Assembly: GCA_036172245.1 (NCBI GenBank)
Contig: JAYWIR010000004.1
Span: forward strand, 2,666,001-2,730,000
DNA from: Raillietiella orientalis
Taxonomy: Eukaryota
Direction of reading: 5' to 3'
Length of the DNA: 64,000 bases
In this document: positions 10,431 through 64,000 of the stretch, in pieces
Layout: each line of letters starts with the position of its first letter
How positions within the stretch are numbered: the first letter of the stretch is position 1
Translations under genes and position numbers: made by a program
Notes under the pieces: generated by a model
The model's database searches: none
The model's input: the letters and a program-made list of their open reading frames with translations, nothing else
What the model was told of the DNA's origin: nothing

Positions 10431-10559
10431 GTGGACCTCCCTTAAAGGAGTCGGACGGTTCTTCAGCACCAAAGAAAAAGAACAAAAAAGGAAACCAGAG
10501 GGAAAGCAGTGAAAACAGAAGAACCCAAAAGGATTACCCTCATCAGAAATATGCAATTC

Positions 10560-35899: not shown

Positions 35900-37400
35900 G
35901 GGGGGGGGGTGAAAGCGTCCCAATCGTCACCTCAAGACACCCTCCTTTTTGGAGGCGTGCCGGGGGATCTTGCCTAGGGTGCCGCCGCCCAGTCTCGCCT
36001 GCTTCTCATAAGGTGCAGTGACGGCCTCCTCCCATGGGTGGCGGACGACCACCACTGAACAGACCAGCTGACGGGGCAGCGGGGCGTCCCGCCCCCAACC
36101 CCTTCACTGCCATTCGACTGATGCGGGAGACATGCAACCACCCAACCCTCCTTCGCAGTCGGGAAGCTGCCGAGGATGGGAGGAGGAGGAGCGACAGCTG
36201 GCGAGGACTTGCGGACGCAGGAACCACTTCCGCCGCCATCTCCCCTTCCTCCTCCTCCACGAGATACGCATCCTGGCTGACGACTCCAGAAAAGGAGGAA
36301 GGCGTAGGGGCAGGGTCCAGGTGCCTCCGTCCACTCACGCCTCCTTTCCATGAGGGCGAAGCCTCTTCCCGAGAACCTTGCACGCGGGCAATATTGCTGC
36401 TGCTGAACTTAAGGAAGGCACGATTATTGCTAGTTGAAAACTTCCGGCCTCATCCAGACGGAAGGAACAAGTGCCAGGGATTTCCGGGAGGGTCGCCGCA
36501 AGGTGGCGCCACTGGCGTCTCCTCTCCTCCCGGGAGACCCAACGGCGAGGTCTGCGTGGGTCCGTGACGTGGGTGCAGCATGACGTCGGTCCCGCCCTCG
36601 TTGCTTTCCCCTAAAAGAAACCGAGCGAGCTCGCAGCGGCGGGACTCCTCCCGGCTCGGAAAAGGCGCCGGCCCCCTGCCCTCTCTCTCGACCCTTCTTT
36701 CCCCTCTCTCTCCCTCGACCTCTGACACCACCGACCGCCGGCACTTCTAGTCCTTCCACCCCAGGGGTGGAAGCCCGATCGGAGAGGCAGGGTCGCCTGG
36801 GAGCGGCCGCGAAAAGCATGGATCCCCCTGTCTCGTGGGTCCTGACTGGCGGGGCTCACCACCGATCCCTTTCCCGAGGACGCTCGGGAATCGGTCTTCC
36901 CGGTCCTCCTGCTCTCGACGTCACTGTCGTGGGAGTGCCCACGCGCGGCATCCTCCCATCCTGCTACTGCTGCTGGATCCGGGTCTGAAACAAGGGGAGG
37001 TTCGGCTGGGAGATCGCCGAGAGACGCGTAAAAGTTCCCCTGAGACGCAGGCCGCCCGCGGGTGGTTGTGTGGAGGCGTTGCCCCGGGCGAGGAGGTTGC
37101 GGGGTCAGCGCTTGGAGCGTTGCCAGGGAGAGGCGCCCCACCCGTCCAGCAGGCGGGTGGCTGCAGCCACCCGCCTGCTGGCCGCAGCCTCGGTTGCCAA
37201 CGGTTATGACGAGCGGCTCGAGGAGGGGGAGAATCGCTCAGCATCCCTGTGGACCGGGGAACGCGTCTCCGGATGCGAAGGAGAAGGAGGAAGAAGGAGA
37301 GGAAGGGAGCGGAGCGCGTCCGAATTCGGCGCGCATCGGTAAGCAGGCATGACGGACGCTGACGCACCCCGCCCGGAACGTGCGGCGACAGCCCCCCGCC
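35900..37400 (-). mobile_element. Possible GC-shifted Tx1 ORF1 relic
   Basis: SQGNFYASLGD (cf. ORF1 'SN.F..L.D'), NNRAFLKFSS and GLFSGGRPPPM (cf. 'G..SG.R...M'), in order on the minus strand. Confidence 0.3.
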
Positions 37401-40400
37401 CGGCGCGCTCGAGGCAATCCGTTGCCAGGGCGACGACACGGAAGACGGCGGCGAGAGCGGTTCCTTTGGGATGTCACGCTGGACGCGCTGGGACTCGCCG
37501 CTGCGCGCGCTCGCGCTTTTGCCCTCCCGGGATTCCCGGCAGGGAGGAGACGAGAGTGAAAGTCACGCGCTGCTGGCCCCTGGGACGCTCGAGCGCGGAG
37601 GAGGAAGCGGGGAGGGGCGGGGGCGGCGACCGGAGAGCAGAGCAGGTAGCGGCAGGGGTGCGGGGACCCCCGGTGCCGGCGACAGCAGCGAGGCGAATCG
37701 CGCCTCGGAGGGGGAAAGCGGCCTCTGGCTGCGCTGAGGCCGGCATCTCCGCGGTCACCCCTCGTCAGCCGCGGGGTACCGAGGAGCAGCAGGAAGCGGT
37801 CGGCCTCTGCGGTGCCCCCGCCGAGATGCGCTTCCAAGATCGTCCCGTCCCTCCCTATCCTCCCGGCATTCCTGGCTGGCTTCCTTCGCGAGTCGAGCCT
37901 GGAAGGCCGCCATGGAGATGGCGGGAACGTCGCCATCTCCGCAGGTTTGCCTTCGCTCCGCAGGGCGGCGCGAGGCTCGCCGTGGCCCCGCGATGCATGC
38001 GACGAGTCGTCACGAACCTCGCGCGAGGTCGCGGTGGGAGGAGGTACGAAAGGAGGAAGAGGGCTTGTTGGCCACCACCTGAGCAGCCCCCACCAGGTCG
38101 AAGGAGGGGAGTCATGGGTGACACTGCCAGCTGCTGCCACCCATGAGCCAACAGATCACTTCACGTTGGCGCGGAGGAGTCGCGGCGCCTCGGATGTCGA
38201 GGCAGGGAAAGAGCCGCGACTCTGGAGGGCGCAGCGCCCGATCCCCCGACGTCTACCTCCTGGTGGTGACCGCGGCTCCACGGTTTTTCTTGGGGCGCGC
38301 GCGCGCCGCAGCAGAAGCAGTGACGGCAGACCTCTCAGGAACGGCGAACCTGAAGGTCAAGTGCGGCATCAAAGGTCGACTCCCCCCCTCGCTCCTGCCA
38401 GAGCCGGCGGGAAGGATGGTGGGGAGGGGCACTTTGCTTCGCTTCCACACACCCACTCCCATCCCACGCCTGTCTGCCCCTCCTTGTGCAGTCGGCGTTT
38501 CCTCAGGCGTCTTCCCATGAGCCCAGCGAGAGAGCGCGCGCACGCACGAGGGGGTCCCCTTGGGACGTCGCAGAGTGGAGGAGGAAAGCGGGGATCACGT
38601 AGGCGAGTGGGCGAAAGGATGGGGGTACGCGGAGGAGGAGCGAGGACCTTCCTGCAAACCAGGAACCCAGCTGGATCGCAGCACCTTCTCCGCGCCCTCC
38701 CACCTTCTGGAAGTCGCCCCCGAAGAACCGTGGCGTCCAGAGGATCTCCAGAGCGCGCGGTCCCACGAAGAGAACGGGACGGTGGGTGGTGGTGGCCCCT
38801 GCTGCGGCGGCGGCGGGGGAGAGGGAGGCTCTCGTGGAAGGGGACGCCTCCGTCGTCCCCCCGCCCGGGCGCGCCCTTTCACGCTCCCCGTTGCCGTGGG
38901 AAACGGTCTCCTCGCCGGCGCGGAAGGGAGCAGGCGCGCCGACGACCTTCCGGTGCGAAAACGGCCTCCAGGGACAACACGGGATGACGAGAGGCCGCCG
39001 GCTCGGCGCTCCTCCCACCACTCCTTCCCAGGGGCTTTTCGCTTTGTCCGGGGCTCGCGGGAGCAGCGACAGACTCATGATTCCGTGGGCGACGGACGCG
39101 CGGATCCGCATCGGCAGGTGCGTGTAGCGCGTGGCAACGGCACGGAGGATCGCACTCGAAACCGGGAGGGGGGAAGGAGGGGAACAGAAGGAGAAGGGGG
39201 ATAGCGGAAGGCAGTTCCGGAATTCCCGACATTGACTGCCCCGGAGGCAGCAGTGACTCCCGCGACGAGGAGGAAGGGAAGAACTTGCCGTTCCTGCGGG
39301 GATGGCGCCGGTGAGTCCACCCTCTCACCAGGAGGGCGCGACAGGGGAGGGTATTCCAGGCAACGAGCGGGACTTCCGCAGCGGGAGAAGGCAAAGTGAC
39401 GAGCGAGAGAAGGATGTTGGGTGTGGCACAGAGGTGTCCTGGGGTCAACCCCCTTTGTCGGGGCTTGAGCTCCTCGATCCGGGAGGAATGGCGACGGCTC
39501 CCACAGGAGCGTCCCACGCCCCGGCACGGGTGTGCAGGAGGAGGTCTGGCTGGAACTTCCAGAGACTGCGAGTCCAAAGCGACGCCTTCGCGCAGCCTCG
39601 GATGGGGTCGCGTGGGCGGCGGTCCCGCCACGCTGCCTCCTCTGCGTGACTGCCTGACCGCAACGCCGACTGCTGCTAGCGGCTCCACTCTGACCACGAA
39701 ACTGTTGCTGATCCAACCGGCGCCATCCTCCTCCCCGCCTCGCGTTCTCTCCGCTGCGCTCTCCACGGGTTCCCGGAGGGCCGGCAGCGCCTGAGGGACA
39801 CCCCTGCGCCTGGCGGCCGACATCGTCGTCTGCAGACTGCCCCGGACCGGACCCTCCTGAAGCACCGCCTGTCTGGCGGCGACCCACGGGTGGGACAGGG
39901 AGGCGCAGCCGCCTCACCACTCCTGGACGCCTCCCTGCACCCACCCTGCGGCGCGGTCACCTGCGCCCGCAGCGGCGTTCGAGCAGGGCGGCCCGCGGAG
40001 GAGGAGGGGTCTCCAGACAGCAGTACAGAGGGTTGGTGCCGTCGCGATCAGGATGGGGAGCCGACCTCTGCGACCAGCTCTCTCCTCATCGCCGCAGGGA
40101 AGGGCTGAGAAAGGGGGCAGCTGTGGAAGCATCCCTCTCTCGCCCTCCTCCGGGTACCACTGGGAGGCAGGGAGTGGTCAGTCGGCATTGCCGCAGGACT
40201 CTCTATGGATGAGCTCTTTTCCTGGGAGGGGGTGGAGGGGGAGAGACCCGGATGGTCTCCCCTTCCCTTCTGCGACGAAGGACTCGGCAGCGCGGCTCCC
40301 AGTGGCTGCTGTCTCCCAGGAGACGACGACCCACGCCTCTTCAGACTCGGAAGGGGGGAGTCGAAACGTAAAGGGCCCGACCCTTTTCCTTCCGCGAAAG

Positions 40401-43400
40401 CTGGGCACGAGCATGGCAGACACCCTTCTCCCTTCACGTGCTGTGAGTTGCGTCCGAATGCCCCGGGCGTTCGTCCAGAGATGCGGACGCATCCAGAGGA
40501 GGAAGGAAGAGGGGTGCCGGCGTACCCCCGAGGGAGACCCCCGTGCTCACTCCGCCGTGCCTTTGTCCCCCCCCCCTTCGTCCTCCTCCAAGGTCCTCCT
40601 CGATTGCGCCTCCTCGGGGATGGGGGAGATCAAGGGGAAAGTCCGTTTCCGCGCGTCCCTTCGAAGGGAGGGGGAGAGGGCAGGAACGCAACCTGTCTCG
40701 CCGAACGGACGGACGAGTTCCCCCCCGGTGACGGTTCGCGGCTCCTCTCTCCTGCCGCCTGTTCCCAAAGCGACGGCCGCGCACCCCCCCCGGAGCGGGA
40801 TGGGTGGATTCGAGGACAGAAGGGTGGAGACGGGAGGGGAGCGGAGAAGACTCTCCGGGAGGAGGAAGAGGGTGCTCCCCTCCCCCCCGCACGCCCGCAC
40901 TGAAGGCGGCGGCAGCGGTCCTGGGGCGGCCGCGGCGGCAGGAGCTCTAGAGAGGGAGGGGGAGGGAAGCGCCTTGAGCGGGGGCGGAGGAAGGCAGCCG
41001 CCATCGCCGCCGCCACGTCGCAGGGTCCCTGCGCACCGTCGCCGCCGCATGGGGGCGTAAACAACCAACGCCCCACGGTGCTCGTCCGAAAGCAGGTTGA
41101 GAGAGATGGGGCCCCCAGGGCACCCTCCCGCCCCTTCCGCGCCGTTGCCCTCTCCGTCGCCGCCGCCGCCACCCCCTTCTTCCCCTCCTCGTCCCTGGGA
41201 GACGCGCAACCCCCCCGCTGCTGCCCGGCGCCAGGACGCCCGCGCGCGCGTCCCCGGAAACTCTCACGAGTGCCCCGGGGGCGAAAGAGGGCGGCGCTCC
41301 GAGTTTTGGAATGCCGTGCGGGTCACGCGGCCGGTCACGCCATCCGCAGGCGGCCGGGTTCCCCTCCCTCCCTGCCCCTCCTCCTCTCCCTCCCCCTCCT
41401 CCCCGTTTGGCCGCGCCCGTGGCGCGCCAGTCGTGAGGACTCCTCGTGCCGCCCGCGGTGCGCCCCTGCGGGGTTCGGTTGGGACGAAGAGGAGGGGGGG
41501 GGGTGAGCGCACGCGCCCCCGGGAGGGGAGGGGATGACAGAAGGGACGGTGGGTGGGCGTCAGGTCGTCCAGACGTCCCTGAGGGCCCGCTCCCAAGCCT
41601 CGCTGCTGGCAGCAGGCAAGTGCGGGGACCGTGTCGAGCCCGGGTGGGTCCTACAGGGACAGGAAGAGGAAGACATCGCCACCCCACACCCGTCCTGGAC
41701 CGCGGTACCGTCGGTGGAGCAACGCGGTCCACCGGCGCCTCCCGCAGCGGGCGAAGAGCGGCACCACAAGAGCAGGCTCGGACCTTCCCCCCCACCTTCG
41801 CGCCCGCCCCGGGTGCGGAATATCCCAGGACACCCGCCCTGTTGCTTCCTTCCCCGGCGGCCGCACCGCTGCATCCTCCGGCCCCGAAATGCAGGGGAAG
41901 GGGCGGCGGCCCCTCGGGGAGAAGGGATCCTCCTCTTCCCACTTTGCTGAGGGTCCTGACCCTGCGATCACCCCCCCCCCCCGCCTTCCCTCCCGCCGCC
42001 GCCGTCGCCTTGGAGAGAGCGCGCCCGCGGGTCTCCTCCTCCTCCTCCGTCGCCGCCGCCACGTTCGGAAGGGAAGCGGCCAGCCGCGGGGCGCAAAGGT
42101 CCTCCCCGCCGCGAGACGCCGCCACCTGTTTCCACGGGAACAAAAGCGCGCGTTGCTCGGCGGCGGCGGCGTCGCCGCGCTCCCGCCGCTACGTGACGCC
42201 TCCATCGCCCCGCGACAAGTGCAGGAATGCGGCCGGGCCGGCTCCGCGGTGTCTGGAGCGCACCTGGGCAGGTAGGAGCGCGGCAGCGGCGGCGGCGGCG
42301 GCGGCGGCGCGCGTGCGCGTGTGTGGCCGCCGCCGCCGCCTCGCTGCCCTCCCGTCCTCCTCCTCCCCCTCCGCCGCCGCTGCCGAGAGGGAAAGGGACC
42401 TCCTCTCCCCCCTCCCCCCTTATTTCTCGCCGCCACGCTTTCCCCGCACCCCGCACAAGTCCCGAGATGCTCCGCGCTCGCCGAGACGGGGGAGGGGCGG
42501 CAGGAAAGCAAATGGAAGGGAAGGGGGGGGGGAGGAAGAAAGCGCCGGGAGCGCGCGCCCCGCCTGCGCCCGCGCTCCTGGCGGCGGCTGCTGCTGCTGA
42601 TGCTCCTGGGCGGAGGTCACGACGGGACGCGGCGGAGGCTGTTGCCGTCTTCGCATTCCATCAGACCCTTCCCGCGGCGCCCCGCCATCTCTCGGATGCC
42701 CTGGCAGGCGTCGCCGCAGCAGCGGCGGGCCGGCAAAAAGGTTCGCGCACGGAGCGAGAGCCCGAGGGCAGACAGGCACGGGACCGCAGAGGATGAGCCT
42801 TGGAGGGGCATCTGCCTGAGTCCCCCCCCTGCCCTCGCTAACCTACGGTCTTCCCGGACGGGAGTCGCGCGCGCGCGGAGGGCGTGACCCGCCCGAGGGG
42901 GAGCCTGCGCTCGCTTTTCGTAACGGGGAATTCGGGAACGCGAGCTTCTCCGTCGGGCTGTCTGCTTTCTCTCTCCCGCCGGGATCCTCCCGGAGGAAGC
43001 CGCCGCCGCGGCATGCAACGCGTCACGTCACGTCCCTGCCACTCCCCTTCGCCCGCGGGTGACACAAACCGGGAAGGAAGGCCGCTGAGGAGTTCCAGAA
43101 GGAGTCCCCGGGGAGGGGGCGGCGGGGGGGGGGAGGAGGAGGAAGGGTGCCTGTTCGCTCGCGGCAATGGGCCGATGCCGCACCACCGGACGCCGTCCCG
43201 CGGGAGCCCGGAAGCGGACGGGAGAGGTGCACTGACTGTTTGGGCGGCGGAACCCGAGGTGGCAGCACTGGAACCGAGTGGCGGGGCTCCCGGCCACGAT
43301 GGGAGGCTGGCCGGCATCGCGGGAAGCTCGAGAGAAGGCCGGAAAGGAGGAGGGGGGGGGGGGAGAGGCTCCGTTTCCGGGATAGGAGGCGCGCGGGTCC

Positions 43401-44126
43401 CGGTCGTCGCCCGTTGCCTCGGAAACCGTTTCCGGAGAACGGGAGGGAAGCGGTTCCGCAGCGGCGGCGGTTCCGCGCGCTTGTTCCGGGATCTGCGCAG
43501 GGCGGCGGCGGCGGAGGCGGGAATGCCGGGATCGAGCGCGCCCGCGCCGGGGAGGGGCGGAGGGCAATCCACGCCCTCCCCCTCCCTCGCTGCCTTGAGG
43601 GCGTAGGCGGCGGGAAAGGCGACAGCCTTGCCATTGCCCGGACCGACCGACTGGCGCATGCGGCCACCCCTTCCGCCTCGCCGAGTATGGGGGGAGAAGG
43701 AACGTGGCACGTCGCTGTGCGGGCCGGACGCACGGGGGCTCGCCTGGTCTGGCCCGGCCTGCACGGCGGCGCTGACGGGGACCTTCGGGAGGAAGAGGAG
43801 GAGGATGGGACCCGCGCGTACCGTTGGCTGCTTCGCGGGGGGAGAGAGCCGGGGGAGGGGGGAGGAGCGGAAGCGCGGCCCGCGCCCGCGCGCGGCTTAT
43901 CAGCGTGGGAACGGACGCGGCTCGCAGCGCGGTCGCACAGGTGCGCGCGTACCTGACCGGCGAGCCCACCCAAGGATGCGGAACGTCGCCCCAGGCGGCC
44001 TACACGCCGCACCTCTCTCGCTCGCGGGAGGACGGCGGCGGCGGCGGCATTCCGCGGGGGCGGCATAGCGTCATCTCGCCGTCGCGCGACCCGCGCCGTG
44101 GGAGAGAGGAGAAGGGGAAAGAGGAC

Positions 44127-44200
44127 CGACCGGAGGCGGAAGGGGGGGGGGAAGGGGAGGGCGACCGGAGGCGGAAGGGGGGGGGGAAGGGGAGGGCGAC
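44127..44200. repeat. 35-bp perfect tandem duplication containing G10 runs
   Basis: cgaccggaggcggaa(g)10aaggggaggg occurs twice, followed by cgac. Confidence 0.9.
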
Positions 44201-45648
44201 TCGCTGGCTGGCTGGCTGCGTGCGCCGGCGCCGAGTTACCCCATTCGCCTCTTACATCCCCATCCACCCCATTCCGCCCTCCCGTTCTTACTACCCCCCC
44301 CCTCTCTCTCTCCCCCTCCACCCGAGAGCGCGCATGCTACGGCAGTGGCGTTCCCGTGGTTACGAGCGAATGGTTGTTCCGGCAGTGCCGAGAGAGAGCT
44401 CGAGGAACGCTGCGCCATTTCGCGGCCTCTCCCGGAGAGAAAACGAGAGGGGCGAGGCCGAGGTGGGTCGCTCCCCGGGCCCCGCACCCTTCCTCTCCCG
44501 TTCCATCCGAGGTCGTTCCATCATTCGCTCGCCCACGATGAGGAGCGGAAGATGAGCAGCGTCTCCAGTCCCCAACTCCCCTCAGGGCAGTCCTCGGTTC
44601 TTTCCCCCTCCCCCTTTTCTAGTCGCCCCCCCATGCCCTGCTCCTCCGCGCGTGCAATGCGATGACCACCACCGGTTCCGCTTCTTGTAGGGCGCGCGCG
44701 CACTTCGCACCGCCTCGAGGACGGGCAGATTCGCCATCTTCCTTTGTAGTTCGCCGTAGGCGCAGTCGCAGGGGCGGCCGAAGGTTGCCCAAGTGGACAC
44801 CGTGGCGAGCGTTCGCTTCCCCCCCCCCCCTTCGCCTCCGGCGCTGCTGCGGATCGCTACGGACCCGAAATTTCGGTGGGGCAGGGGAAGGAGGGAGACC
44901 CCACCCCCATCCCCTCACCCACCCCTTCCCTTTCTCCTTGTTGAAACGGAAGGGGCCGGAGTGCGCGGCTGGTGGTGGTGGTGGTGCGCGCGGCTCAACG
45001 CGAGGCGGCTGGTGTGTCGGTGTGCACCTGCTTGCTGCGGCTGCTGGAGGTCGTCGAGGTCGTCCCGGAAGGGAAGGCGAGCGGATCCTCTGGGGAAAGC
45101 GAGAGTCCTGATGCGGGCGGAGGCGAAAGGGGGAGCGTAGCCTGCCAGGTGGGGAGAAAGGAAGGGGAGAGGCGCCCGCGGAACGGTCGCGCCATCAGTC
45201 CACTGGCAGCCGGGTGCGATTCTCCTCCCGGTCCCCTCTTCCTCCTCTGAGGCACCCGGGGCCTGTCGCGGAACGGCCCGAGCCGACGGCGAGGAAGGGG
45301 GAGGGGGAGATGAGGGAAGAATCCTTCCCATCCGCCGCCACATCTCTCGGGACGGAAGGAGACAGCACGGCGCGGTCTTGGTCTTGCGTTGCCTTCCCAA
45401 GGACCCGGTGCGCGCAGCCGCCTCCGCCGTCATGCGTGCGAGAAGGTAGGGAACAGGACGAGGAAGCGGGAGGGAAGTGGGGGGAGGAGGAGGAGGAGGA
45501 GTGCGGTGATTCGCAACGCGGCGGCGCCCGCAAACGGCACGCCTCCTCCACCTCTTCCATCTTGGCGGGTTGACGACGGACACACCGCCCGCATTTCGTT
45601 CGCTCTGACGACCGGCGACGACGACCAGCCCGGAACACGTGCGCGGGT

Positions 45649-45682
<34 letters not shown>

Positions 45683-48446
45683 GCGGTGACCAACGTGACC
45701 TTGCACTTTCGTGTTCTCCTACTTCGAGATTCCGATCGAACACTTGTGCTTCGCGAGCATCCGCTTCGCGAGCGCGAGAGAACGGTCGCTCCCCTCTCCC
45801 CCTCCTTCCTTCGCGCGCGCGCACGCATGCACGCACGACGCAAGCTCCGATGCGTGTCCAGCAGGAACGGGCGACCTCGGAGACTTCCGCGTGAGGTGAG
45901 GGAGGGGTGAGGCTCGTGGTCTTGCGGGAGGGAGGAAGGAAAGAAGAAAGTTCCGCACGGGCCGCCACGTCCCCAGCAGCTTTCAGGGGCCTCTTCACCC
46001 TGGGCGGCGAAAGGCGTCCCTCTTCATCCGAGTGCCTGCGCGTCCTCCCTCTCTCTCGGTTGCGATCACCGCTGGTTCCTCACTCCCAGCTCACTCCCAT
46101 GCGCTCTCCGAAGACTCTCGGGGGAAACGACCAACTAGGCCGGGGCTGCCCAAAGTGGGAAGCGGCAGCGACACGACACGGGAATCGCGTTCCTCGTCGC
46201 GCACGCGTACCAGCGGGGTCACGTTACGTCCAACCTCGGTGGCGCTGGGCCAGAATTTCTCTAGGAAACACACCGAGCGGAACGATCCATCTCCACGCGT
46301 TGGCGATCGTTCCACCTTCGCCCCCTTCCAGATTCGGCATTTTCCCCCATTGCGCCCAAGAAACTTTTCACGCGCGTCCACCGTGGCACACCCTCTCCCC
46401 TGCTTCCTTCCGTGGCGTGCTTGGACGTGCTCGTCCAGAGAGAGGCCTATTACGTGCCTGACCACAAAAATTTAAAATGCCCAAAAGAAAAAGTGACCGT
46501 GTGTGAAGAAGAAGCATGCCCTCCTCCTCGGCTACGTTGACCACATGAGCGGGCGCTTCCCTTTTTTTTTTTTCTTCTCCCATTGATCCGGCCGTTCAGC
46601 GAAATCGCGCGCTGAGTGTATGTGTGTGTGTGTGGGGGGGGGGAGGACGCAGGGTAACGGCTCGCTTGCACCGGAGTCGTGCTGTCTGCAGCCCCCCCCC
46701 CGTCCCCCCCACCAGCTGGCCAATTCGGTGTCACCGCCGCAACAATACAAACGACAACAAAGTATCGATCGATCCGATTGACGCTGATCGGGGAGCGCGA
46801 ACCTCCCCCCCCCCTCCCCCAGGAATAAATAAATGAATACATAAAAAAATTTTGAATCGGGAAACCGCAGGGATGCTCCTCTCGATTTCCCTACTCTGAA
46901 TTCGTCCGAAACTCATCGTCAACACGCCACGCGGAAGAATAGGAACGCACCTTCCTTTTTTCCTTATTCCTTTTTCCTCCCCCCCCCCCTCCCTTCTTGC
47001 CGATCTGCTGCTGCTGCTCGTGATATTTCCATGGCGATTCCAATAGGAGCGAAATTGAGTAATAATTGTTGGCGAAGCTTGGAGCGAACGGAAGCGCATC
47101 CGGTGGGTTTTTCCCGACCGAAATTGACACTATTACAAGTCGTTTCGCGGATTTGCAAAAAAAAAAATTGCGTTTTATTGCGACTGGGGAAACACATGCA
47201 CACACACACACACACACACACAAAAAAAAAAGGAAAATCACGGGATCGTGTGTTGCATTATCATCTCCGATACGTGGTGTGTTCTCGGGCACCGGGACGC
47301 CGCGACGTCCGCAAAAGCTCCGATGGCCTGCAACGGCAAATTTGTGTGGGAAAACATCGGGTCGCGATCGGCTGCGTGAGAGAGGAGGAGGAAGCTTCTG
47401 GGAAATCCTCGGACCCTGGGAATGATGTAATATAGAATAAATAAACTTCCTCTGCGTAGAGAACAATCCGGCCGAAACGCAGATCCCCCTCCCTCTGGGC
47501 ACTGAAATGCCAGATGGAGGCATCCCGACTATGGAAAGCAGCATGCTGCGTTCCGGTTTCAATCACAGGTGCGCACGCTGCACAAAAAGAGCCAAGCCCT
47601 GCTACTCACCGTTTCCTTTACAAATTTTCCTTCTCACAATGCAAACGCAACGTGTTGCATTTAATTTGAATGTTGGCTGATTGTGAAAGGCAAACGGACT
47701 CGAACGTGGCCGGGTTTGAGGACAGCTGTAATCGGCGGTCCTGTTACTTCAGCATCTTTCTGCCTTTTCGCTCCGGATGGTGGCTTTCTGGTTTACATTT
47801 CCACGAGGGGCCCCCGAAGACTTCCAGGATTCCGAATTACCTTTCGGCTCGGACCTTCTTGTCTCACCTTATCGATTGCTTGCACAGCCGGAATCTTTAC
47901 CCGTTCCAGTGTAAAGATGAGCAGAAGGGACTCCATTCATCCGAAACGATTTCCATTTTAATGCAGGAGAAGTTAATTTTCACGAAGTGGATGCAGTGAA
48001 AGAGTTACTGAACTCGATTTCGAGTTTACTCCAAATCAAAGAAATGGCATTTTTCTTTTTTTTTTTGCTTCTTTTCGAGAATGATCTCGTTTGTACCGGA
48101 ACGTGCTAATGTGCTGATTATCTTTTGACACAACTGTTTTCCGTTCCAGATGGAAGCGGCACAAGAAATCTGTAAGTGATCTCGTGATACACAGATGCTT
48201 GAAAGCATTAATACATGCACGTATACACATATTTATTGTGTGTTGGGGACTTTCGCTGATTGAAAGCCCGGAGGGGAAAACATTCTTTTCAGCATTGCGA
48301 CGACGACGACGAGTTTCATCAAACAAGCAAGAAAGAAGCTGGGATGATAAAAACCCATTTGAAAATATTGCCCTCCTCCCCCCCCCCCCCCCCCTCTTCC
48401 TTTGCCGATCACTTCGAATCACAATAACCACTTAAAATATGACAAA

Positions 48447-49990: not shown

Positions 49991-50060
49991 GCGCATGCGC
50001 GCTGGACGCCCTCCCTCTCTATATAAGGGGGACCCCGAGGAAGACAGCGCGGTAGTTTGC
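49991..50060 (+). promoter_or_regulatory. Core promoter of the Id-like HLH gene (NRF1/Ewg site, TATA box, Inr-like)
   Basis: GCGCATGCGC at 49991-50000, TATATAAG at 50020-50027 and TAGTT ~30 nt downstream. There is no ATG between this site and 50107. Confidence 0.7.
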
Positions 50061-50106: not shown

Positions 50107-50379
50107 ATGATAAAGATTCGGAAGCAGCGTATGTACCGTGTCAGGAGGATGTCGTCTCTCCGCAACCGCCAAGTCGACGCCTACCTGAAAAAGCTCGTAG
50201 AACTGATCCCATGCATTCCGAAACAAAAGAGACTCTCTCGCTTCGAGGTCATTCAGTTGACTATCGAGTACATATGTAAGTTGCAGCGCACGCTTCAAGA
50301 GCATCCTTTGATATCTTTAAAGGAGCAGCACAACGAGGGCTTAGAAATCTCTTCTAAGAGCAGATCATTACAGGTATAA
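50107..50379 (+). CDS. Divergent Id/emc-like helix-loop-helix protein with Arg/Lys-rich N-terminus (90 aa unspliced)
   Basis: YLKKLVELIPCIPKQKRLSRFEVIQLTIEYICKLQRTL is an Id/emc-type HLH, with 18/45 ungapped identities to the 57845-58102 protein. It has a TATA box upstream and AATAAA downstream. Confidence 0.9.
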   Translation: MIKIRKQRMYRVRRMSSLRNRQVDAYLKKLVELIPCIPKQKRLSRFEVIQLTIEYICKLQRTLQEHPLISLKEQHNEGLEISSKSRSLQV

Positions 50380-50420
50380 ACGGTTGTGCCCGGTCAGCGT
50401 AACGGTACTTTTTGTTCCAG

Positions 50421-50607: not shown

Positions 50608-50613
50608 AATAAA
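50608..50613 (+). terminator. Polyadenylation signal of the Id-like gene
   Basis: AATAAA ~230 nt after the stop, followed by a T/GT-rich tract (cttgtttttg at ~50634-50643). Confidence 0.7.
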
Positions 50614-53600
50614 TGCTGTGATCGAAATTTCAACTTGTTTTTGCAACGGTGCCATCAACTGCGATTGAAGAATGTCCAGCGTCTCTTTACGTGGTTAAAC
50701 AAAAATCCCCCCCCCCCCAAAAAAAAAGAAAGAAAGAAAGAAGCGGTTCAACGTTGTATTATGTGAAGACGACGGTTTCCTGAAGTATATTTCGCCCCCT
50801 TTAAAAAACCAGCGCAAAGCCGGACTGTGGAGCCATTGGTCCGAGTTAGGGTTATAGAAGGAATCCACGAGTACATCTTTTTCTCACCGACGTGGGTGCG
50901 CCGCCGGTTTCCCTGCGGGGAAAAACAGCAGCACGGGGAGGGATCGGCCGGTGGTGCTTTTTCCTCGTCTTGTAAACTCCCATTTTTGTTTGCGATGGCA
51001 GCAACGCCACGTTTCCGTGACATCAGATATTTCTGTCCCGGTTCCTTCAACCGGTCTGTTTCCAAAAGCTTCCGTGTGTGCGAAAGATACGTAGGGTTGG
51101 GTTTCCAGCCTTCTTCCCCATTTCCTTTTTTTCGTTTTGCCCCGTCTGCGTCTCCTTGCGCACCAGCCGTCGAAAAACGTCGGAAATCAATCGGAGCGAT
51201 CGCAACGGTGTTCCCGTTAAGAGAGTGCTACTTGTTTTTTTTTTTTTTTTTTGGGGGGGGGGGGGCAACGGGATGGAACGGGCCGTCCCACGGGCCTGTT
51301 TTTTTCCCGAGTGGTGCAGCAGCAGCAGCTCGTCTGTTTAATGCTACGGTTGCGCTGGGAGTTTCGAATCGTGGGAGGCACCTCCTCCTGTGCCCTCGCA
51401 GGCCATCCTGAGGGGCTGCTGGAGCGGAAGAGAGAGTGGTGGGATGCGTGCGCGCGTCTCTCTGTGCACGCCAGGAGTGGAGGCGGCTGCCTTTCGGAGG
51501 ACCCCGGTTTGCCAGTCTTCGGTTGTGGGAAAGGGCAAGCCACCTTCTTTGACCACCTTCACCTGACACGTTTGGAAAATTCCCAGCGCTTGCAGACAAC
51601 GTCGATTCGATTCCAGGGGAAGAAGGAAGGAACTGCTAAGGAACGCAGGAAGCGGAACAGCGCTTTCCGTTACAGCAACCTGCTCTCTCGATTCCTAATT
51701 TATTCGTTTCGTGCACGAAAGTGTATCCGCAAGCATGGGCCCTCTTCCTCCGGGAAACCAATCCCTGCGTGGTCAAGAAGTTGCGGGAAAAAAAAAAAGG
51801 AAAAAATCAGGTGATAAAATGAAGAGAGGAGGAGCGTTTACAGTAACTGAGGATCAGTCAGTTGCCTAGATCAACGACCGGCCGTCGGTTTTGCCTGCGT
51901 TTCCTAATCGCTCGCATTATGAAATGGCTTCGCTGGAACAGATAACTCCGCCAGGTTTCCCTTGGCGATAATCATTGGAATCTGAATGCGGTGACTGGTG
52001 AGGCTGGTCACTTGGCATTTCATGCAAGTGTTACAGGCGTGTGTGTCTATTGCGTCATGTTCTTGTCGCCATTTTGCTCGGCTCGCCGTGTCACGACATT
52101 CTTGGAGGTGCAATTGCACTGCCTTGCACACACACACACACACACACACACACACCAGGTGTACGTGGATGGCGCTGGCCGGGGAGCGAGGTGTCCGCAC
52201 ATACATCCGTGCATGTGTGTGCGCGTGTGCATTTGTCGGTTTCAGCTCGTCCGATCGTATCTGCCCAGGGCACGCGAATATTTCCCGAGTTTGGGCAGTG
52301 ATTTTTCCGGTGGGGGGATTGCACAACGCTCTTTCGCTGCTGTTGGTGCAGAATCTCCTTGACCGAAAAGGCTAATCATCCGAGTTAGGAAACGAGTGAT
52401 ATCGATGTGGCAACGCGCGGATTTCGCGAGCTGCTGCAGGACCTACGGAATTCCTCCGTAGGGTTATTGCCGTTTGTTCCAAACGACGGGTTTAGGCAGC
52501 ACGCCTTCTTCCCAGCTCGGACTCAAAAAAAAAAAAAAAAAGGGGAGGGGGGGGTGGACGATGGTGGTGCGCGTTCACCGGGGTCAGTTTATCCGATGGA
52601 AAACGTTCGGCGGTTGTGCGAAGAATATGGGATCGATTTGACACGTCCCAATCAATGATAGACATAATTGAATAATGGCGGCGAGTACTGCGCATCCTGC
52701 ATTTAAATAAGACTTCCTTGCTACCCCCCCCCCCTCCCCTCAGCAGAAAAGAAAAATGAGAGGGTGGTGAAGAAAGGAATCGTTTTTATTCGAGGATGGC
52801 GGTTTGAAAAGAAGAGAAAGAAGAGAGGAGGAAAAAAAAAGAAAAAAAAAAAAAAGAAGAAATCTCGGGAAACACGCGCAGACTTTTTCTCGGTTGGGAA
52901 GAAACGATTTCCCTTCCCGGAATGGCGACGAAACTGCTGGACGAGAAACTGGGAAAATTGGGCACCGTTCGAACACGCGATGAACTGTCAAAGATCCTCC
53001 GTCCCCCGAAAGCGAGCACTCCGATTTCCCAAAGCGGTCTCTGATTTTCTCACGATGCCCATCTGGTCCACGAGGTATGCCGGAGAGAGTGCGAAATGAT
53101 GCAGGTGCATTTTTCCTTAGGCTCTCATTACAGTATCTGAAAAACGGTGACTTTCTCACCTTCCAGTCATGTTTGCATCCGAGACAATCGGAGCAGTCTC
53201 AGGTGAGAGGCTCGCAGTGTGTGTGCTTTACGCACCCTTCGGCAGCCATGGGAACGGAAAGCCACACCGAAGCGGTGACACCGGAGAGCGCGCGACCGAG
53301 CCGCCGAGCGCAGTTGCATAAATTCGGGAAGACGGGAGGAGGAGAGGGGAGGGGGGGGGGGGGGTGAGAGAGACAAGTGCCCGCTGAGGAAGAAAGGACA
53401 GCTCGTGGAGAGCGGCCGAGAATGTTTCCATTTCCCGTGGCGAGTTTTTATCCTGATTTTTCTCCAAGGTCCACTTTCGTTTCGGTCCTTCCTTTCTGTT
53501 GCAACGGATACCGTTCGATGGAAAGATCTCTTGTCACGGCGGAGGACCTTCTCGAAAAGCACGCGAGGCAGGATTTTCTTCTTCTTCTCCTTCTTCTGCT

Positions 53601-56495: not shown

Positions 56496-57844
56496 TGGCA
56501 GCATACCTACCACACCTTAACAACACACAAACACACACAAAGCGTGTCTACGAAAGGGGGGTGTCCTTTTTGGAGGACACGAATCCGTCTGCGTTATCTT
56601 GTGAAATCCATCACTTTTGAGACAGAAGTTCCTCTTTTTTTTTTTTTTTTCCTTCTTCTTTCGCTACCGATGCGCGGGAGCTCGACAGGCTTTCCATGCG
56701 TCGCAGTTCTAATTACTTCCTGCTTACCTTTTCTTGGTCACGGACTGAGATTCACACAAGAAAGCGACTTTCTACGTGAAAAATTATCAATTGAGGGCGC
56801 TGGAAGAACTGCGCGCTACACCTGGTCCTCTAGACACCTGGATGGAATACGAAAGTATGCGGCAGAAATTTGCTCGCGAAGAAAACCGAGAGAAGGAGAG
56901 GGCGAGAGAACGAGAGGGAGGGAGGGGGGGGGGAAGGGAAAGGAAAAAAAAAAAAAAAAAAAGGAAAAAAAAAAAAAAAAAAGCAGCAGCAGTCTCGATT
57001 CTTTGCTCTTGGACGATGACGTGGCGACAGCGCTTACATGGAACAGGCGACTGCAACTGAAAGTAAAGCTACCAACCCCTCCCCCCCCCCAAACACACAC
57101 ACACACACACACAAATCGTGGAAGGAAAAAAAAATAAAAATGGCGGGCGAGCGGTGTGGTGGAAGAATTCCCTGCAGTCCTCGAGTCGGGTGTTCGACAG
57201 GCCTGACGCGTCGAAATGGAATCCAAAAAAAAAAAAAAAAAGTCTCTATAAGAAAGGAGTTCAATCATCTTTTCACACGCTGGAGCATACAATTTCTTTC
57301 TTTTAAAAGGGGAAAAATAAAAAAAAAAAACATGCTGGCCAGTTGTTTTCTTTTTTTTTTTTTTTTTTTTTTAATGAACAGAGAGTTGTTACTGAGACTT
57401 CCTTCAGTCGACATGCCGTTATGGAACGACACCAGCACGCGCGAAGACATTTTGCAGACTCGTTCACTTTCTGCACGGCAGACTCGCAGCGAAATGGCTT
57501 GCTTCAAACATCGATCGATAGCACGCATCGCAACATCCCTCGTCGAGGACCGGAGTGTTCACCAAAAAGGAAGGAAGGAAGGAAGGAGGGGAAAAAAAAG
57601 GGGGGGGGCGGGGGGGGGGAATGCAGCAGCAGAGACGCACAGTGCGTGCACATGACGTGTTTTCGGAGCACACGGTGCGCTGCTGCTGCTTCGGTGCCAC
57701 TGCCGTGGCTCCCGTTGCAGCTTCCCAATGGCAGCATCCTTGGGGATCGAAATCTACGAAATCACGACGCCTCGTGGGCTGCGACGGGGGGGGAAGCGCA
57801 ATTTCGCTCGCTCGCCGAGAAGAGTCTTTTCGGAACCATGAATT

Positions 57845-58102
57845 TCACGAGCACACATTGCAAATGGATGGAACGTGCGGAAGCTGCAGTGTATCTTCCA
57901 GGTCATAGATATAGTCAATCACGTACTGTATCAACTCTAACTTGCTCACTTTTTTGTCCTTAGGAACGGATGGGACGATGTCTTTCAGCTTCGTGAAGTA
58001 TTCCTTGATCTGAACACTCTCGCAATCACTCTGTCTCTTGAGTATCTTGCCATCCTTGACAGGATCCTTGCAAGGTACCTTCGTGACGGGAAGAGACTTC
58101 AT
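57845..58102 (-). CDS. emc: Id/extramacrochaetae (inhibitor of DNA binding) HLH protein, 85 aa
   Basis: MKS start, GKILK motif and ESVQIKEYFTKLKDIVPSVPKDKKVSKLELIQYVIDYIYDLEDTL form a classic group-D HLH with no basic region. Confidence 0.96.
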   Translation of the reverse strand: MKSLPVTKVPCKDPVKDGKILKRQSDCESVQIKEYFTKLKDIVPSVPKDKKVSKLELIQYVIDYIYDLEDTLQLPHVPSICNVCS

Positions 58103-58199
58103 AGCCGTGCGTGTGTGCGTGAGCTTTCACTGAGACGGAGGATCGCGCCACCACGGGATGCAGCAGCACCACTACACGACGGGCGCACTTCACACGCCC

Positions 58200-58249
58200 A
58201 ACTGCGAAACCTTAAGGCCGTGCTACTCCGCGTCGCAACTGCTTTTATA
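58200..58249 (-). promoter_or_regulatory. TATA-box core promoter of emc/Id
   Basis: TATAAAAG on the minus strand at 58249-58242, ~140 nt upstream of the ATG, with no intervening ATG. Confidence 0.7.
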
Positions 58250-58413
58250 CGCGCACGAGCCGGGCTCGGAGCAGATGCACCCCACTGCCATCTACGGTCG
58301 CGTGCCCGTACTTCCGCCTGACACACATTTCAGACGTTCGATAGAATGCACGCCTTTTGCAGAAATGCGTTCCCGCTTCAGTGACCGTGGTGTAAGCAGC
58401 TTGCCAAGTGATA

Positions 58414-58449
58414 GCTGCTGTCCGGCGCCAGCCTGGCGCGCTGCTGTCC
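58414..58449. promoter_or_regulatory. Candidate BMP/Smad response element upstream of emc/Id
   Basis: GGCGCC-AGCCT-GGCG (58424-58438) fits GGCGYC(N5)GNCV. It overlaps the palindrome GCGCCAG-C-CTGGCGC, which is flanked by GCTGCTGTCC direct repeats. Confidence 0.6.
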
Positions 58450-60999
58450 ACGCACGCACGCACGAGTTCCGTGGTGGTCGTTGGACTGCTGCTGCCGCAG
58501 ACTCCGGATCCGTCCCTGCGATGGCACCGCTTTCCGAACTGGAATCTGCCGAGCGGCCACCCGAATCATCGCCAGGATGACTTGCGGGAGGGAGAACGGG
58601 AAGAGGGCAAAAGACACGCTCCCACGCGCACGAAAAGTGCACCTTTCGGGAAAGGGAAACCCTTTTGTCGACCCCATTGTTCGAGGTACTTCCCTGAAAC
58701 CTGAGGTGCATTTCGCTAGCGCTGGAGCCGCAGAAAACCTCGGAGATGGCCCTGCGTTCCGTCGGCTGCCGCCGCTGCTGCTGCTGCTTCGCGCCCGCTG
58801 TGCCTTGCGAGCCGGGAGTTGGTGCTGGCGAAGTTCGTCGTCGCGCCGCCCGTCCTCGTGCAGAGGGCGCGGGCGGCACATCACCGCGATTCGCCGAGCG
58901 GTTCGCAGCGTCTTCAATCGTTCGCCGTTTCCGGATTCCGAGCGGCTCCGACAGAGCTCGCAGGGTTTTTTTTCCCCCCCCCCCCTCCTCCGCGAAGCGC
59001 TCCTCCCCCTCCTCCGGTCCTCCGACTGCCCGGCCAGATTCTTCGCCACCGCGCCGGCGCGGAAGTCCTGTGCGCGTGCACTCGATCTCACTCGGTCCCT
59101 GCCGCAACTTCATGATGCGCCCGAAAGGAAAAGAAGTGAAATCTGGGCGTTGGCTGATTGATGCTGGGCGGGCCGTCCGGATTCCCGCGAGGTCACCGCG
59201 AGGGCGCGTAGCGCCCGCATCGTGATCTTTCGCTAGGTTACCCGGGAGGTGGCTGAGGGAGCGGACCGCGCTGCCAGGCCAGAGGGATGGCCGGCAGAGG
59301 TACCACCAGCCCGGGTTTCGCGAGGGCCGCCCTCGTGACCCTTCGGTCTCCATACGGTCCGGAGAGGAGGGGGGCGGAAAATCAACTCTGGGATAGCAGT
59401 CATCCGGAGGAAGGTCCCTCGCAGCTAGGAGGAAGGACGATGCCTGCGTAACAGATGCGTGTCTGCGGTCGTGTCTCCCAGGCAGGAGGAGCGGCGCGCT
59501 TTCCTATTCTTCCGCTCCCAGAAGTCTTTCCTGCCTGCTGCTGTCGTGCCGCGGTTCCGGGATGGTGCGCGCCACGGAGAAGTCGCCGGCGCCGCCGCGT
59601 TTTCCGCGCACGCGCGCTGACGGATGGAGGAGCGAGCACGCCTACTTGCCAGCGGAGGAAAACGGAGATGCGGCAACGAGGTCACGCACGCACGCACGCA
59701 CGCACTCGCGCGAACGCGTGCGTGCGTGCGTTCACCCCGTGTGCACGTGTGCGGCGTTCGCCAGAAGGGAATCGAGGAATCACCCCGGAAGGCCAGGGGG
59801 CCCGGGAATCACCATCGTCTTTCAATGTCACTTTCGCAGAAGCGACCTCTCCGGAGTTCTTCGCCTGGAGGAGGATGCGTTATTTCCCCCCTTTTGGGAT
59901 ACGGGCGCTCCTCTTGAGACGACGATGGCGACGGTGCTCTTCCTTTCCCGAGAAAAAAAGGGATTGGTGGTGGGTGGGGGGAAGGAGAACAGTTCCGATG
60001 AGGTGCTCGGGAGAAGGAAAGAACGGAACGGGGAGGTGCGTGGGCGCCCTCTGCCGGCGTCCACCTGAACGAAGAAGGCGCGGGCCGTCATCGCGTCAAC
60101 CCCCGGGCCCTCTTCCGTGACCCGGGGCGGGTCGCACGTGCCGTCGATCGCGGAGGGGAGAGCGGGCGCGCCCCTCTGGGAAGGAGGAGGGAAAAAACCG
60201 TTACATTCGAGCCTGGGATGTCCACCCCATCTGTCGTCATCTCCATCTGTTGCGACATTCCAGCTGCCCCGCCACCAGCGCGAAAACAGATTAATATTTT
60301 ATAAAGCGCAATTACCTCCGACCTTGAGATCAGCACGGTCGCCCACCGACGGTCAACACATTGTTGAGTCTCCCGCCGGTGAGCGGACCCGGTCCCGGGG
60401 CGACCGCGCCTGCGCGCGCGCGCCACCGTTCCCCCCCATTTTTCTCCCGCGCGGGCAGCTGGTGCCGCCGCCTCTGTCCTCGCGCTCCTCGTCGCCGTGG
60501 TGATCGAACGGACTTATCGGAAATGCGCGCCGGGCATCTGTCCTTCCAGTGAAAAGGAAAGCGAGGGCGCGCGGGAGGGAAACAGGGAGGAAGGGGGAGG
60601 AGGAGGAAAGAGGAGGAGGAGAGCGCTTGCCCATTCATCGCTTAATAAGGAGAGGAATGCAGGTGAAGAGGGAGGGCGTCAGGCAGTGAAAGTGACGACA
60701 GGTCACGAAGGCTGACCCGTTCCCTCTCCCCCCGCAAGGGTGGGATAATGAAGGATCAGCGCAGGCTGCCACCGCGCCGCTGACGTCGCCGACTTCCCCC
60801 CCGCTCCCAACCCTTTCACTTTCTATGGGAATTACGCGTGACAACATCTGCCCACGGTTGTTGAGATTCCCATTGTTGCGAAGCCGCGATAATCGCCGGG
60901 CTGCCGACGTCCCCCCTCCCCCCACCCCACCACCGCTTCCAGGAGAGTAGCTCTCGACTGCTGCAGGGCGACGACCAGGACTCCAGCCCGCTTCTTCGG

Positions 61000-63900
61000 C
61001 GACCGCTTTCCCTTTCTTTTGCTCCCCCTTCCTCTTTCAGCATTCCTCCTCCTCCTTACCCGCCGCTGCTGCAGCCGCTGCGCGTCCCCATTTCGAGGCG
61101 CAGGATGTCCCTGTTTCTCCGGGGGGGAGGGCGCCGAAGTTCGGTCATCGCCACAGAGGGGAGTTCCTCCTCCGGGTCGACCTCCGCGCGGAGGACCGGT
61201 ATTTCTCTTCGGGACGCTGAGGTTCGGGGAGACCAGCCGCGACGAACCCCGAGCAAGGGGAGCGACTGGTAAGGAGGGGGATCCGGAAGGGGCGCGCAAG
61301 AGGGCCGAAAAATGGGTCTCGCAGAGAAAGGCTCTCCGGCGAGAGCGCGCAGGAGGGGGGGAGAGAAGAAGTTCCTCCCTTCCCCCTCCCCCGTTCCTTC
61401 GGGAAGTGCTGCCATCTGCAGCTGCTGCTGCTTCCGCTTGCGCGTCTCTCCGAACGGCGGTTTCCCCGGATGGCGAGCCTCTCCTGGACTTCCGCCCGGC
61501 ACGCAAGGAGGGAGGGAACGGGGAGGAGGAGGAGGATGGAACAGATGCTCGCGCCATCTCCAGGCGCCTTGGCGACATCTGCCACCGGATGAAGGATCGC
61601 AGCCACAGGAGCGTCGAACCCCCCGATCCCTTCCTTCCCCCCGAGGAATTTGGAAGCCGCCCAAGAACGCGGGTGCGCCCCCTCGGCGCGCTTTTCAGGA
61701 GGCACGCCGTTCCCCCCGGAAGAATATGGACGAAGAAGATGCTGCTTCCGTCGCGGAATGGACCGGTGCGCTCCCAGGTGCTCCTCTCCCCTTACGGCAG
61801 CGGCGGAGGGATAGCAGTCAGTCCCGGCTGCCCCCGGTGGGAGACCCCCCCGTCGTGGAGGGGGAGGAGGCAGAAGCAGCTCCCCCTTCTCCCCGCTTAC
61901 TCCCCTCCCCCACGGAGCCCTCCCCATCCTGGGCGCTGCGGAAAGGATGCTGGGCTTTCGATCCTTCCGATGGAACAGCGGCTGGGACGCGGGAGCCACG
62001 AGGCGAGGAGGGGAGGACCAGGAGAAGTTTTCGGGGGTCGCGCTTTTCCCGACCCAGATAGGGAGGCGTCCCCCAGCCCCCTTTTCTCCTGCTCCCCCCT
62101 CTCTGCGCTGGCTAGGTGTGGGAGTGGGGGTCATGACGCGGAGGCAGGGGATCCGTCAATTCCCATCCTCCTCCTCCCCTGCAGCCGCCGCATTCGGAAG
62201 GTCCCCAGATGGGTGCGAGAGCGGCCTCGTTGCAGGCGAGAGGAGGAGGAGAGGCAGATCAGGGGCAAAAGAGACCCCATTTGCTGCCTTCTCTCACCCT
62301 ACCTCACCACCGCTACCACCCGCAGCTGTGGGGGTGTCAGTAAGCGGGGCAAGGAGGGAGGGCTTCCTTCCTCTTCCCGGTGCTTGATTGCCGCCCGCCC
62401 CCGTCTTACTTTGCACTGAGAGGCATCCTCAGGGCGACCTCTCCGGCTGCCCGGTGGGCCCGGTCCGCGGAGCCTCCTGCAAGCGCCTCCTCCCTCCCTT
62501 CTCCCCCTTCCACCAAGGCGCACCCCCGGGACCCGAGCGCGTTCACTCCGGAAGGGGCCTCCCCGCCCTTCTCAAGACCGTCTGGCGCGGGCCGGGGAGG
62601 GCCTGGCTGCGGTTGGGCGGCGAGTGGGGACGCACCCGTCCGTTTGGCGCGCCACTCCTCGCCCACCGGGCGGATCCCCGCGTCCGCGCGCCGCAGGTGT
62701 GGCGGTTGCAAACGCCTTGCTTCGCGGGGGGTGCGCGGAGAGGGGAAGGGAAGGACTTTTCTGCTCCGGGACGATCCTTCCGGCCCTCCTTCCGGGTCCC
62801 GCCTCTTTACCTCGTCTTCCCGTCGCTTCCAGGGTCGTCACCAGGTGATCCTCCGCTCTCGACGGGGGACAGATGAAGGGATTGAAGGCGAGGCAGTGGA
62901 GGGCACTTCCTTCGGGGCTTCGGAAAGGAGGGGTCACGCCACGGATCCCGGATCGCAGGGATCCTCGCCCCTCCCCCCTCCTCACGTTCCTTCTCCCGGT
63001 CGGTCGGTCGGTCGCCCTCCTTCTGGAGGACGGTGCCCGGCGGCGGTGGTGCGCTCGTCGGCCTTCGCCGGGGGGTGAGGCGAGAAAAAAGGGCGGAGGA
63101 GGGGGAGGGGGGGGGGAAGAGAGAAGCCCACCCGATCGCGACCGACGGGTGGCGCACGCTGGCGCGCGAACCACTTCCCTGCCGGTCCGATGGGGGCGGA
63201 GGACCACGATAATCGCCGGGAGTGTTCGAGGCGGACCCGGAGGAGAACGCTCGCTTTCGCTCAAGATCGGTCGCGAGGGAGCGCTTCGGGGTCACTCCGA
63301 GGGGTTTTCCGGCGGGGAAGGAGGGACGCCGGGATGAGTCAGGGAGTCTGCGTCCGCCTCTCCCTCGAGAGCATCGTCCGCTCGCGAAAGCATCGAGGAG
63401 GAGGAGGGAGGAAGCTGTGCGATCGGACGCTGCTCTTGCGTCGGTCTCGGCGGCTCCACCCAGGCAGCGGGGAAAGGAGGAGGTGCCCTGGGACCTTGGG
63501 AGGGGCGAAGAGCGGAAAGCCCTCCAAGAGGGAAGATTGCCGGAAAAGGGGGGAGGGGAATGTGCGGGCGCTGCTTCACGTGTCGCCCCGCCGCATGATC
63601 GCTTCCCCTCGCCTCGGGAGTCAGGAGGAAGAGGAGGAGGAGGTCCGCTTCCTCCCCCTCGTCCTTCAAAAGGCTCCCGAGAAAGGTAGCAGGATCCATC
63701 CCTGCCTCCGACGCGCCTTACGCAAAGGAGGTCCCTGGACCGCGCCGCGAGTCGGCCATCACCGTCTCCGTCTCCTCGGCAACAAGCGGCAAAAAGTCGC
63801 CGCGGATACCGGTGCAAGAAGAACCCAGAGAGGAATCTGCGAGCAGCGCATCCTGGATTCGGAGGATCGGTCGCGGACTGCGGACGGACGGAGACGGCCC

Positions 63901-64000
63901 GGACCGACTTTCCTTGCCCTCGACCCCACGCCCCGCTCAGGGCAGCAGCAACGCGCTCTCCCTTCCGTTCTGACCGATCCTGACCGACCGCAGAGGAGGC
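61000..64000 (+). mobile_element. GC-shifted, decayed Tx1-type LINE (endonuclease region ~62150-62750)
   Basis: Collinear APE-like motifs across frames: GAKETPF ('QETH'), VGVSV, QGDLS ('GDFN'), KAHPRDPSAFT...FSRP ('HP....FT...SR.D'), PQVWRLQTP ('G.W.LN.S'). The outer limits are uncertain. Confidence 0.5.

Follow-up and report, generated by a model that had tools for sequence, protein, structure and literature searches.

A predicted Emc/Id-type HLH protein with a cationic, acid-free flank in Raillietiella orientalis

Introduction

Id and Emc proteins are the textbook transcription-factor family that acts through the absence of a DNA-binding part. What, then, should be made of a family member in which an arginine-rich peptide stands where the DNA-binding part of a bHLH protein would be? 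This question is raised by a short open reading frame, here called gene A, in a 64,000-nucleotide stretch of the Raillietiella orientalis genome (assembly GCA_036172245.1, contig JAYWIR010000004.1, positions 2,666,001 to 2,730,000 of the forward strand), which we refer to as the window. An initial annotation offered two explanations: a lineage intermediate between bHLH and Id proteins, or an Id protein that had regained a basic segment. We have compared gene A with its family, with its neighbour and with predicted structures, and we weigh these explanations together with others below.

Results

Gene A has the layout of a compact gene, with the following elements.

50020..50026, forward strand: TATATAA box, 81 bp 5' of the ATG, read directly from the sequence
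50107..50379, forward strand: gene A coding sequence (P0001), Emc/Id-type HLH protein, 90 codons plus a TAA stop, with sense codons at 50107-50376
50374..50420, forward strand: putative 47-nt intron (CAG/GTATAA ... TTGTTCCAG/CAA), read directly
50608..50613, forward strand: candidate polyadenylation signal AATAAA, read directly

From stop to stop the frame comprises 107 codons, and position 50107 is the first ATG 3' of the TATATAA box, with G at -3. Further in-frame ATGs lie at codon 9 (C at -3) and codon 15 (A at -3); the initiator would thus be M1, M9 or M15, and initiation at M15 would strip the protein of most of its charge. A possible splice donor, CAG/GTATAA, begins within the codon that precedes the stop, and a good acceptor lies 47 nt downstream. 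If spliced, the putative intron would replace the C-terminus ...SLQV with ...SLQ-QCG and alter only the last residues. At 90 residues the protein is short (the family median is 168), and it has neither the MK(A/S) start nor the GRV block nor the RQPL tail motif of arthropod Emc; a search for a downstream exon carrying the Emc RQPL/SRPVSC tail gave no credible candidate. A low-complexity run, C10 A9 (GAAA)n, occupies 50700-50735 on the forward strand, a few hundred bases past gene A.

The family of the encoded protein is indicated by its HLH domain.

50164..50286, forward strand: HLH domain, gene A residues 20-60 (Pfam PF00010, profile positions 13-53 of 53)

Judged by its sequence, gene A is a group D (Emc/Id) HLH protein, class V, because the results from Pfam, the PDB, phmmer, the ESM Atlas and Foldseek agree. 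The domain matches PF00010 at E 2.8e-6 (27.5 bits, cut-off 20.7). Of 17 PDB sequences at E<=1, ID-2 (4aya; E 8.6e-7) ranks first, ahead of ID-1, NeuroD1 (0.0019), TAL1 (0.003), ID-3, ASCL1 and Twist1 (0.19). When 1.84 billion representatives were searched exhaustively with phmmer, 185 matched at E<=1e-3, of which one reached E<=1e-10 and none E<=1e-30, and there is thus no close relative of gene A in that library. When 20 of the matches were looked up, 14 clusters carried names, and all 14 were arthropod or nematode Emc/Id/bHLH records: 'protein extra-macrochaetae(-like)', 'emc', 'DNA-binding protein inhibitor ID-2' or 'BHLH domain-containing / unnamed / hypothetical protein', drawn from insects, springtails, crustaceans, a barnacle and one nematode. 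A feature search of the ESM Atlas placed 28 of its 30 matches in the Id set, with a score of 0.93. Foldseek, run on the AF2 model against the PDB, ranked the ID2 homodimer first at E 9.7e-3 and gave nothing at E<=1e-3. Within an 80-member alignment, gene A keeps every one of the seven family-invariant columns (L30, P35, P38, I53, Y55, I56 and L59) and, by our own reading, six of the eight near-invariant ones. It shares with Emc/Id proteins the signature L-x-x-L-[VI]-P-x-x-P ... S-[KR]-x-E-V-I-Q ... I-[DE]-Y-I-C-x-L-Q ... H-P, the small size and the absence of Glu-9, Arg-10 and Arg-13. An orthologue of gene A was found neither by word-index search, nor among the 1.84 billion representatives, nor in a metagenome scan for close relatives, where 329 pattern matches yielded no confirmed case; word-index homologue searches with gene A, and with the neighbouring gene described below, gave nothing useful.

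The stretch that sets gene A apart lies immediately N-terminal to this domain.

50113..50169, forward strand: cationic flank KIRKQRMYRVRRMSSLRNR, gene A residues 3-21, in which S16, S17, L18, R19 and N20 correspond to bHLH positions 9-13

As the initial annotation had described, this basic peptide directly precedes an Id-like HLH; it runs straight into the PF00010 domain. We compared it with 152 family members in an ungapped register anchored on the loop proline P35, which we take to be bHLH position 28 in the numbering of the bHLH literature. In this register gene A reads S-S-L-R at the E-R-x-R positions, which bears out the earlier description: the E-box glutamate is replaced by serine and the second arginine alone is kept. 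The gapped HMMER alignment to NeuroD1 (2ql2_B) instead sets L-R-N-R of gene A opposite E-R-N-R, at the cost of a two-residue gap or deletion in helix 1. The E-box glutamate is missing from gene A in both registers.

Over the 22 residues N-terminal to helix 1, gene A has nine K/R, no D/E and no P/G, and its net charge of +9 ranks first of 152. At positions 1-15 the net charge is +6 with no acidic residue; only 6 of the 152 members are free of acidic residues in this segment, where the most frequent net charge is 0 (59/152). The charge of the gene A flank exceeds chance for the Emc/Id family, whose flanks have a mode of 0 and three to four acidic residues. Family members typically carry D at position 10 (54/152), E at 12 (85), N at 13 (58), E at 14 (66) and E at 15 (119), with R at 9 also typical; gene A has S9, S10, R12, N13, R14 and Q15. 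On these alignments its hallmark is the full loss of the acidic cluster at positions 10, 12, 14 and 15 and not the presence of basic residues as such. With seven K/R in the 17-residue window that plant bHLH surveys use, gene A is fourth of 141 proteins, and at least six K/R occur in 11 of the 141, including annotated Emc proteins of Orchesella cincta and a Notodromas protein. The premise that Id and Emc proteins lack a basic region therefore needs to be softened: it holds approximately for the family, but three to five K/R in this window are common in arthropod Emc proteins, in addition to the 11 with at least six.

Three proteins resemble gene A in the flank. P0038, the Orchesella cincta Emc (P0071) and a Notodromas monacha bHLH protein (P0022) have eight to nine K/R in the 17-residue window and no Glu-9, and P0038 also lacks Pro and Gly in the flank and carries a net charge of +8 over 22 residues, the rank next after gene A. 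However, each of the three has one or two acidic residues in the flank, and the tree places none of them with gene A. P0038 is itself Id-like, with nine K/R of 17 and a long acidic tail; a word-index search with it returned only itself and no relatives. A limited, non-exhaustive literature search found no description of an Emc/Id paralogue with such a cationic flank.

Classical nuclear localisation patterns (PSORT-type pat4, pat7 and bipartite) do not occur in the flank. The sole match in gene A is PKQKR, in the loop, which is the site where a review lists an 'NLS-like' stretch of Id1 and Id2. A mitochondrial presequence was also considered, given the Arg/Ser/Leu-rich and acid-free N-terminus, and is unlikely for an HLH protein.

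AF2 models of gene A and of its neighbour, gene B, were built from the same 80-row alignment. In gene A the flank and helix 1 form one helix (residues 5-33), followed by a loop and a second helix (45-64); the pLDDT per ten residues is 57, 76, 94, 87, 92 and 96, and is 87-96 over residues 21-60. In gene B, helix 1 spans residues 23-42 only, with pLDDT of 51-65 before it, and relative to the loop proline the modelled helix 1 of gene A begins nine residues earlier. With moderate confidence, this agrees with a flank that is free of Pro and Gly and able to prolong helix 1 in the manner of a bHLH basic region. The helix is rich in basic residues (seven K/R of 17) and modelled as continuous over residues 5-33, but its pLDDT is just 57-76 before residue 21, and AF2 favours helices in basic segments.

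Gene B is the second HLH gene of the window.

57845..58102, reverse strand: gene B (P0157), canonical Emc-like paralogue, 85 codons plus TGA, with sense codons at 57848-58102
58243..58249, reverse strand: TATAAAA box of gene B, read directly

It was recovered by an HMM built from the gene A matches (frame 57848-58126, reverse strand; E 9.4e-25), for which gene A was in the training set and gene B was not. The two genes are convergent, lie about 7.5 kb apart and show 40% identity in a 53-residue alignment (E 8e-14). They share the family, a small single-exon-like layout and a TATA box, although no similarity between the two promoters was seen; both are far shorter than arthropod Emc proteins usually are, and the RQPL tail motif is missing from gene B as it is from gene A. 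In contrast to gene A, gene B has kept the MKS start and an acidic flank, SDCESVQIKEY (D10, E12), its 17-residue window holds four rather than seven K/R, and helix 1 as modelled is shorter by nine residues at the N-terminal end. The neighbour mentioned in the initial annotation is another Id/Emc-type gene and not a Twist-type bHLH: no canonical or Twist-type bHLH was found in the window, where three regular expressions applied to 1481 frames of at least 25 residues detected only helix 2 of gene B, and the HMM detected only A and B.

The window is eukaryotic, and its GC content varies in patches from 37% to 74%. The stretches at 34000-47000 and 58000-64000 are very GC-rich (61-74%); they contain runs of GGC/GCC, and open reading frames occur in every one of the six frames. 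Pfam matched none of their 20 or so longest frames, which were among 30 scanned, and no tandem repeat scored at least 200 between 34 and 64 kb. Rfam gave no match over the window. Fragments of reverse transcriptase (RVT_1) occur at 10513-11838 (forward) and at 28050-28817 and 28463-28759 (both reverse), and since the copy at 28 kb is split across two frames, we regard the RVT_1 fragments as decayed retrotransposons. A frame at 2025-2309 on the reverse strand matches TrmO_N, the N-terminal domain of tRNA methyltransferase O (E 1.2e-8), and is probably a single exon of a TRMO-like gene. Like gene A, gene B is followed at a distance of a few hundred bases by low-complexity sequence made up of homopolymers and a tetranucleotide repeat: 57560-57625 on the reverse strand holds C-runs, a T-run and (CCTT)n.

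A quick maximum-likelihood tree was computed from 151 rows and 66 columns, leaving out P0148, a true bHLH protein. None of the 151 rows has a longer terminal branch than gene A, at 1.29 substitutions per column against a median of 0.12; gene B stands at 0.52. Left unconstrained, the tree sets gene A close to Emc-like proteins of crustaceans and locust, with support of 68-87. A tree constrained to unite A and B improves on the quick free search by 80 lnL units. The AU test (p 0.987) does not reject a clade of A and B. A local duplication is thus not rejected and is, if anything, the favoured reading, although this sister relation may partly reflect long-branch attraction, as both branches are long. 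Since all seven invariant columns survive so long a branch, we infer that the fold of gene A is under selection. Most likely, on this phylogenetic evidence, gene A is a derived, lineage-specific and fast-evolving Emc/Id paralogue.

Discussion

Based on these observations, we propose that gene A is a fast-evolving Emc/Id duplicate whose product would dimerise without reading the E-box, and whose cationic flank would alter its localisation or its electrostatics. We put the probability of this reading at roughly 0.6. In our model, gene A would be a short, TATA-driven Emc/Id paralogue, probably derived from an old local duplication of an ancestor common to A and B. Because its HLH core is intact, gene A most likely still heterodimerises with class I/II bHLH proteins of the Daughterless/E-protein type. 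The predicted dimers would be unable to read CANNTG, since the equivalents of Glu-9, Arg-10 and Arg-13 are Ser, Ser and Asn. The pre-helix stretch lines up column for column with the Emc flank, with N13, Y19 and L20 common to both; the acidic D, E, E and E at positions 10, 12, 14 and 15 would have become S, R, R and Q, and extra K/R would have been added N-terminally. The outcome is an Arg-rich segment of 21 residues that contains no Pro or Gly and may extend helix 1.

We believe that this segment would alter where, or with whom, the gene A inhibitor acts. One option is nuclear or chromatin retention independent of a partner, in which the cationic segment could free the inhibitor from a carrier; the failure of the flank to match any pat4, pat7 or bipartite pattern speaks against this option. 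Another is a change in electrostatics towards the basic region of the partner. Engineered dominant negatives with acidic extensions offer a model for the pairing of an acidic cluster with a basic region. By analogy, the acidic cluster of Emc may pair with the basic region of its partner, in which case a charge swap would shift partner affinity or choice. We do not suppose sequence-specific DNA reading to have been restored. The earlier suggestion of an Id protein that regained a basic segment fits this model, given the Emc/Id-type HLH, the longest branch of the tree, the adjoining canonical paralogue and the failure of our searches to find an orthologue.

It could be argued that the basic residues serve no function under selection: gene A may be a relaxed or decaying duplicate, or may be initiated at Met15, and the charge would then be a by-product of drift. 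The longest branch in the tree, the lack of an orthologue in the word-index, phmmer and metagenome searches, the length of 90 residues against a median of 168, the missing MK(A/S) start and RQPL tail, and the retrotransposon-littered surroundings are all consistent with such a history. However, the frame is open, lies between a TATA box and an AATAAA signal and has a first ATG preceded by G at -3, and the seven invariant core columns have survived heavy divergence, which points to selection on the fold. Furthermore, the change in charge is directional, as all four acidic positions have become neutral or basic and no acidic residue is left in 22. We therefore regard drift as an unlikely, though serious, explanation of the flank.

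A second alternative is that gene A has been re-armed, such that, in a homodimer or as one half of a heterodimer, an Arg-rich extension of the helix touches a non-E-box site or the backbone of DNA, and the protein acts on chromatin rather than solely sequestering its partners. Seven K/R in the 17-residue window, an arginine at position 12, the freedom from Pro, Gly and acidic residues and a modelled helix that, unlike that of gene B, is continuous would suit such a role. In bHLH-DNA structures, positions 2, 5, 6, 9, 10, 12 and 13 face the DNA. Of these positions, however, only R6 and R12 are basic in gene A, and 9, 10 and 13 are S, S and N. A rule of thumb for plant bHLH families assigns proteins that have at least six basic residues and lack Glu-13/Arg-16 to the 'non-E-box DNA binders' (Niu et al., 2017; PMC5558667), and it would class gene A as a possible DNA binder and gene B, with four K/R, as non-binding. 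Gene A does resemble these atypical plant proteins in having at least six basic residues and no E-box Glu/Arg pair, but they belong to an unrelated lineage, and their class is a prediction scheme and not a demonstrated mechanism. Being heuristic in kind, the rule was at no point validated for group D, and it is also passed by 11 of the 141 family members, annotated Emc proteins among them. For these reasons we think it rather improbable that gene A is a DNA-contacting HLH protein of this kind.

More speculative still is a version in which inhibition and nucleic-acid contact are combined: an uninterrupted Arg-rich helix might regain contact with the DNA or RNA backbone without reading the E-box, and heterodimers with a bHLH partner would stay at half-sites on chromatin and not be drawn away from it. 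Although we give this idea little weight, it would, if true, be a reversal of the family's defining loss and a natural 'tethered inhibitor' mode that is undescribed for group D.

Finally, gene A might descend from an old lineage between bHLH and Id, such as Pearl, and retain part of the ancestral basic region. The Pearl family was reportedly treated by Gyoja and colleagues in 2012. The initial annotation named both Pearl and Peridot as relatives of group D. For Pearl this is found in print, as one analysis puts it in group D with a K/R-rich flank that lacks Glu-9, but Peridot is not placed in group D in the part of that paper available (Bao and Shimeld, 2017; PMC5381572). Compared by eye with seven rows from the supplement of that paper, and with no computed alignment, gene A shares with Pearl a K/R-rich lead-in without the E-box Glu and a loop of equal length. 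The likeness ends at helix 2, where these Pearl rows read KVTVIEEA[IV]KYI[DE]ELH and have Ala for the second loop Pro, whereas gene A is Emc-like at both: in helix 2 (EVIQLTIEYICKLQ) as in the second loop Pro it agrees with Emc/Id, and the Pearl signature V-T-V-I-E-E-A-x-K-Y-I is absent, again by eye. Identities counted in the same way are about 20 of 34 between gene A and the Emc protein P0010 and about 12 of 34 between gene A and the oyster Pearl row of the supplement, and the Pearl helix-2 motif occurs in none of the 150 matches listed. As gene A is of Emc/Id type in every search, sits on the longest terminal branch, shows no deep relatives in the phmmer search or the tree, and adjoins a canonical paralogue, the intermediate lineage offered as one option at the outset finds no support, and we consider it highly implausible.

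Gene A is an orphan, and its value is as a lead. As a probable fast-evolving Emc/Id duplicate beside gene B, it amounts to a natural charge-swap experiment that comes with its own control. It could reveal the role of the little-studied Emc flank, be it in partner electrostatics, localisation or turnover, and it could show whether group D proteins can return towards contact with nucleic acids.
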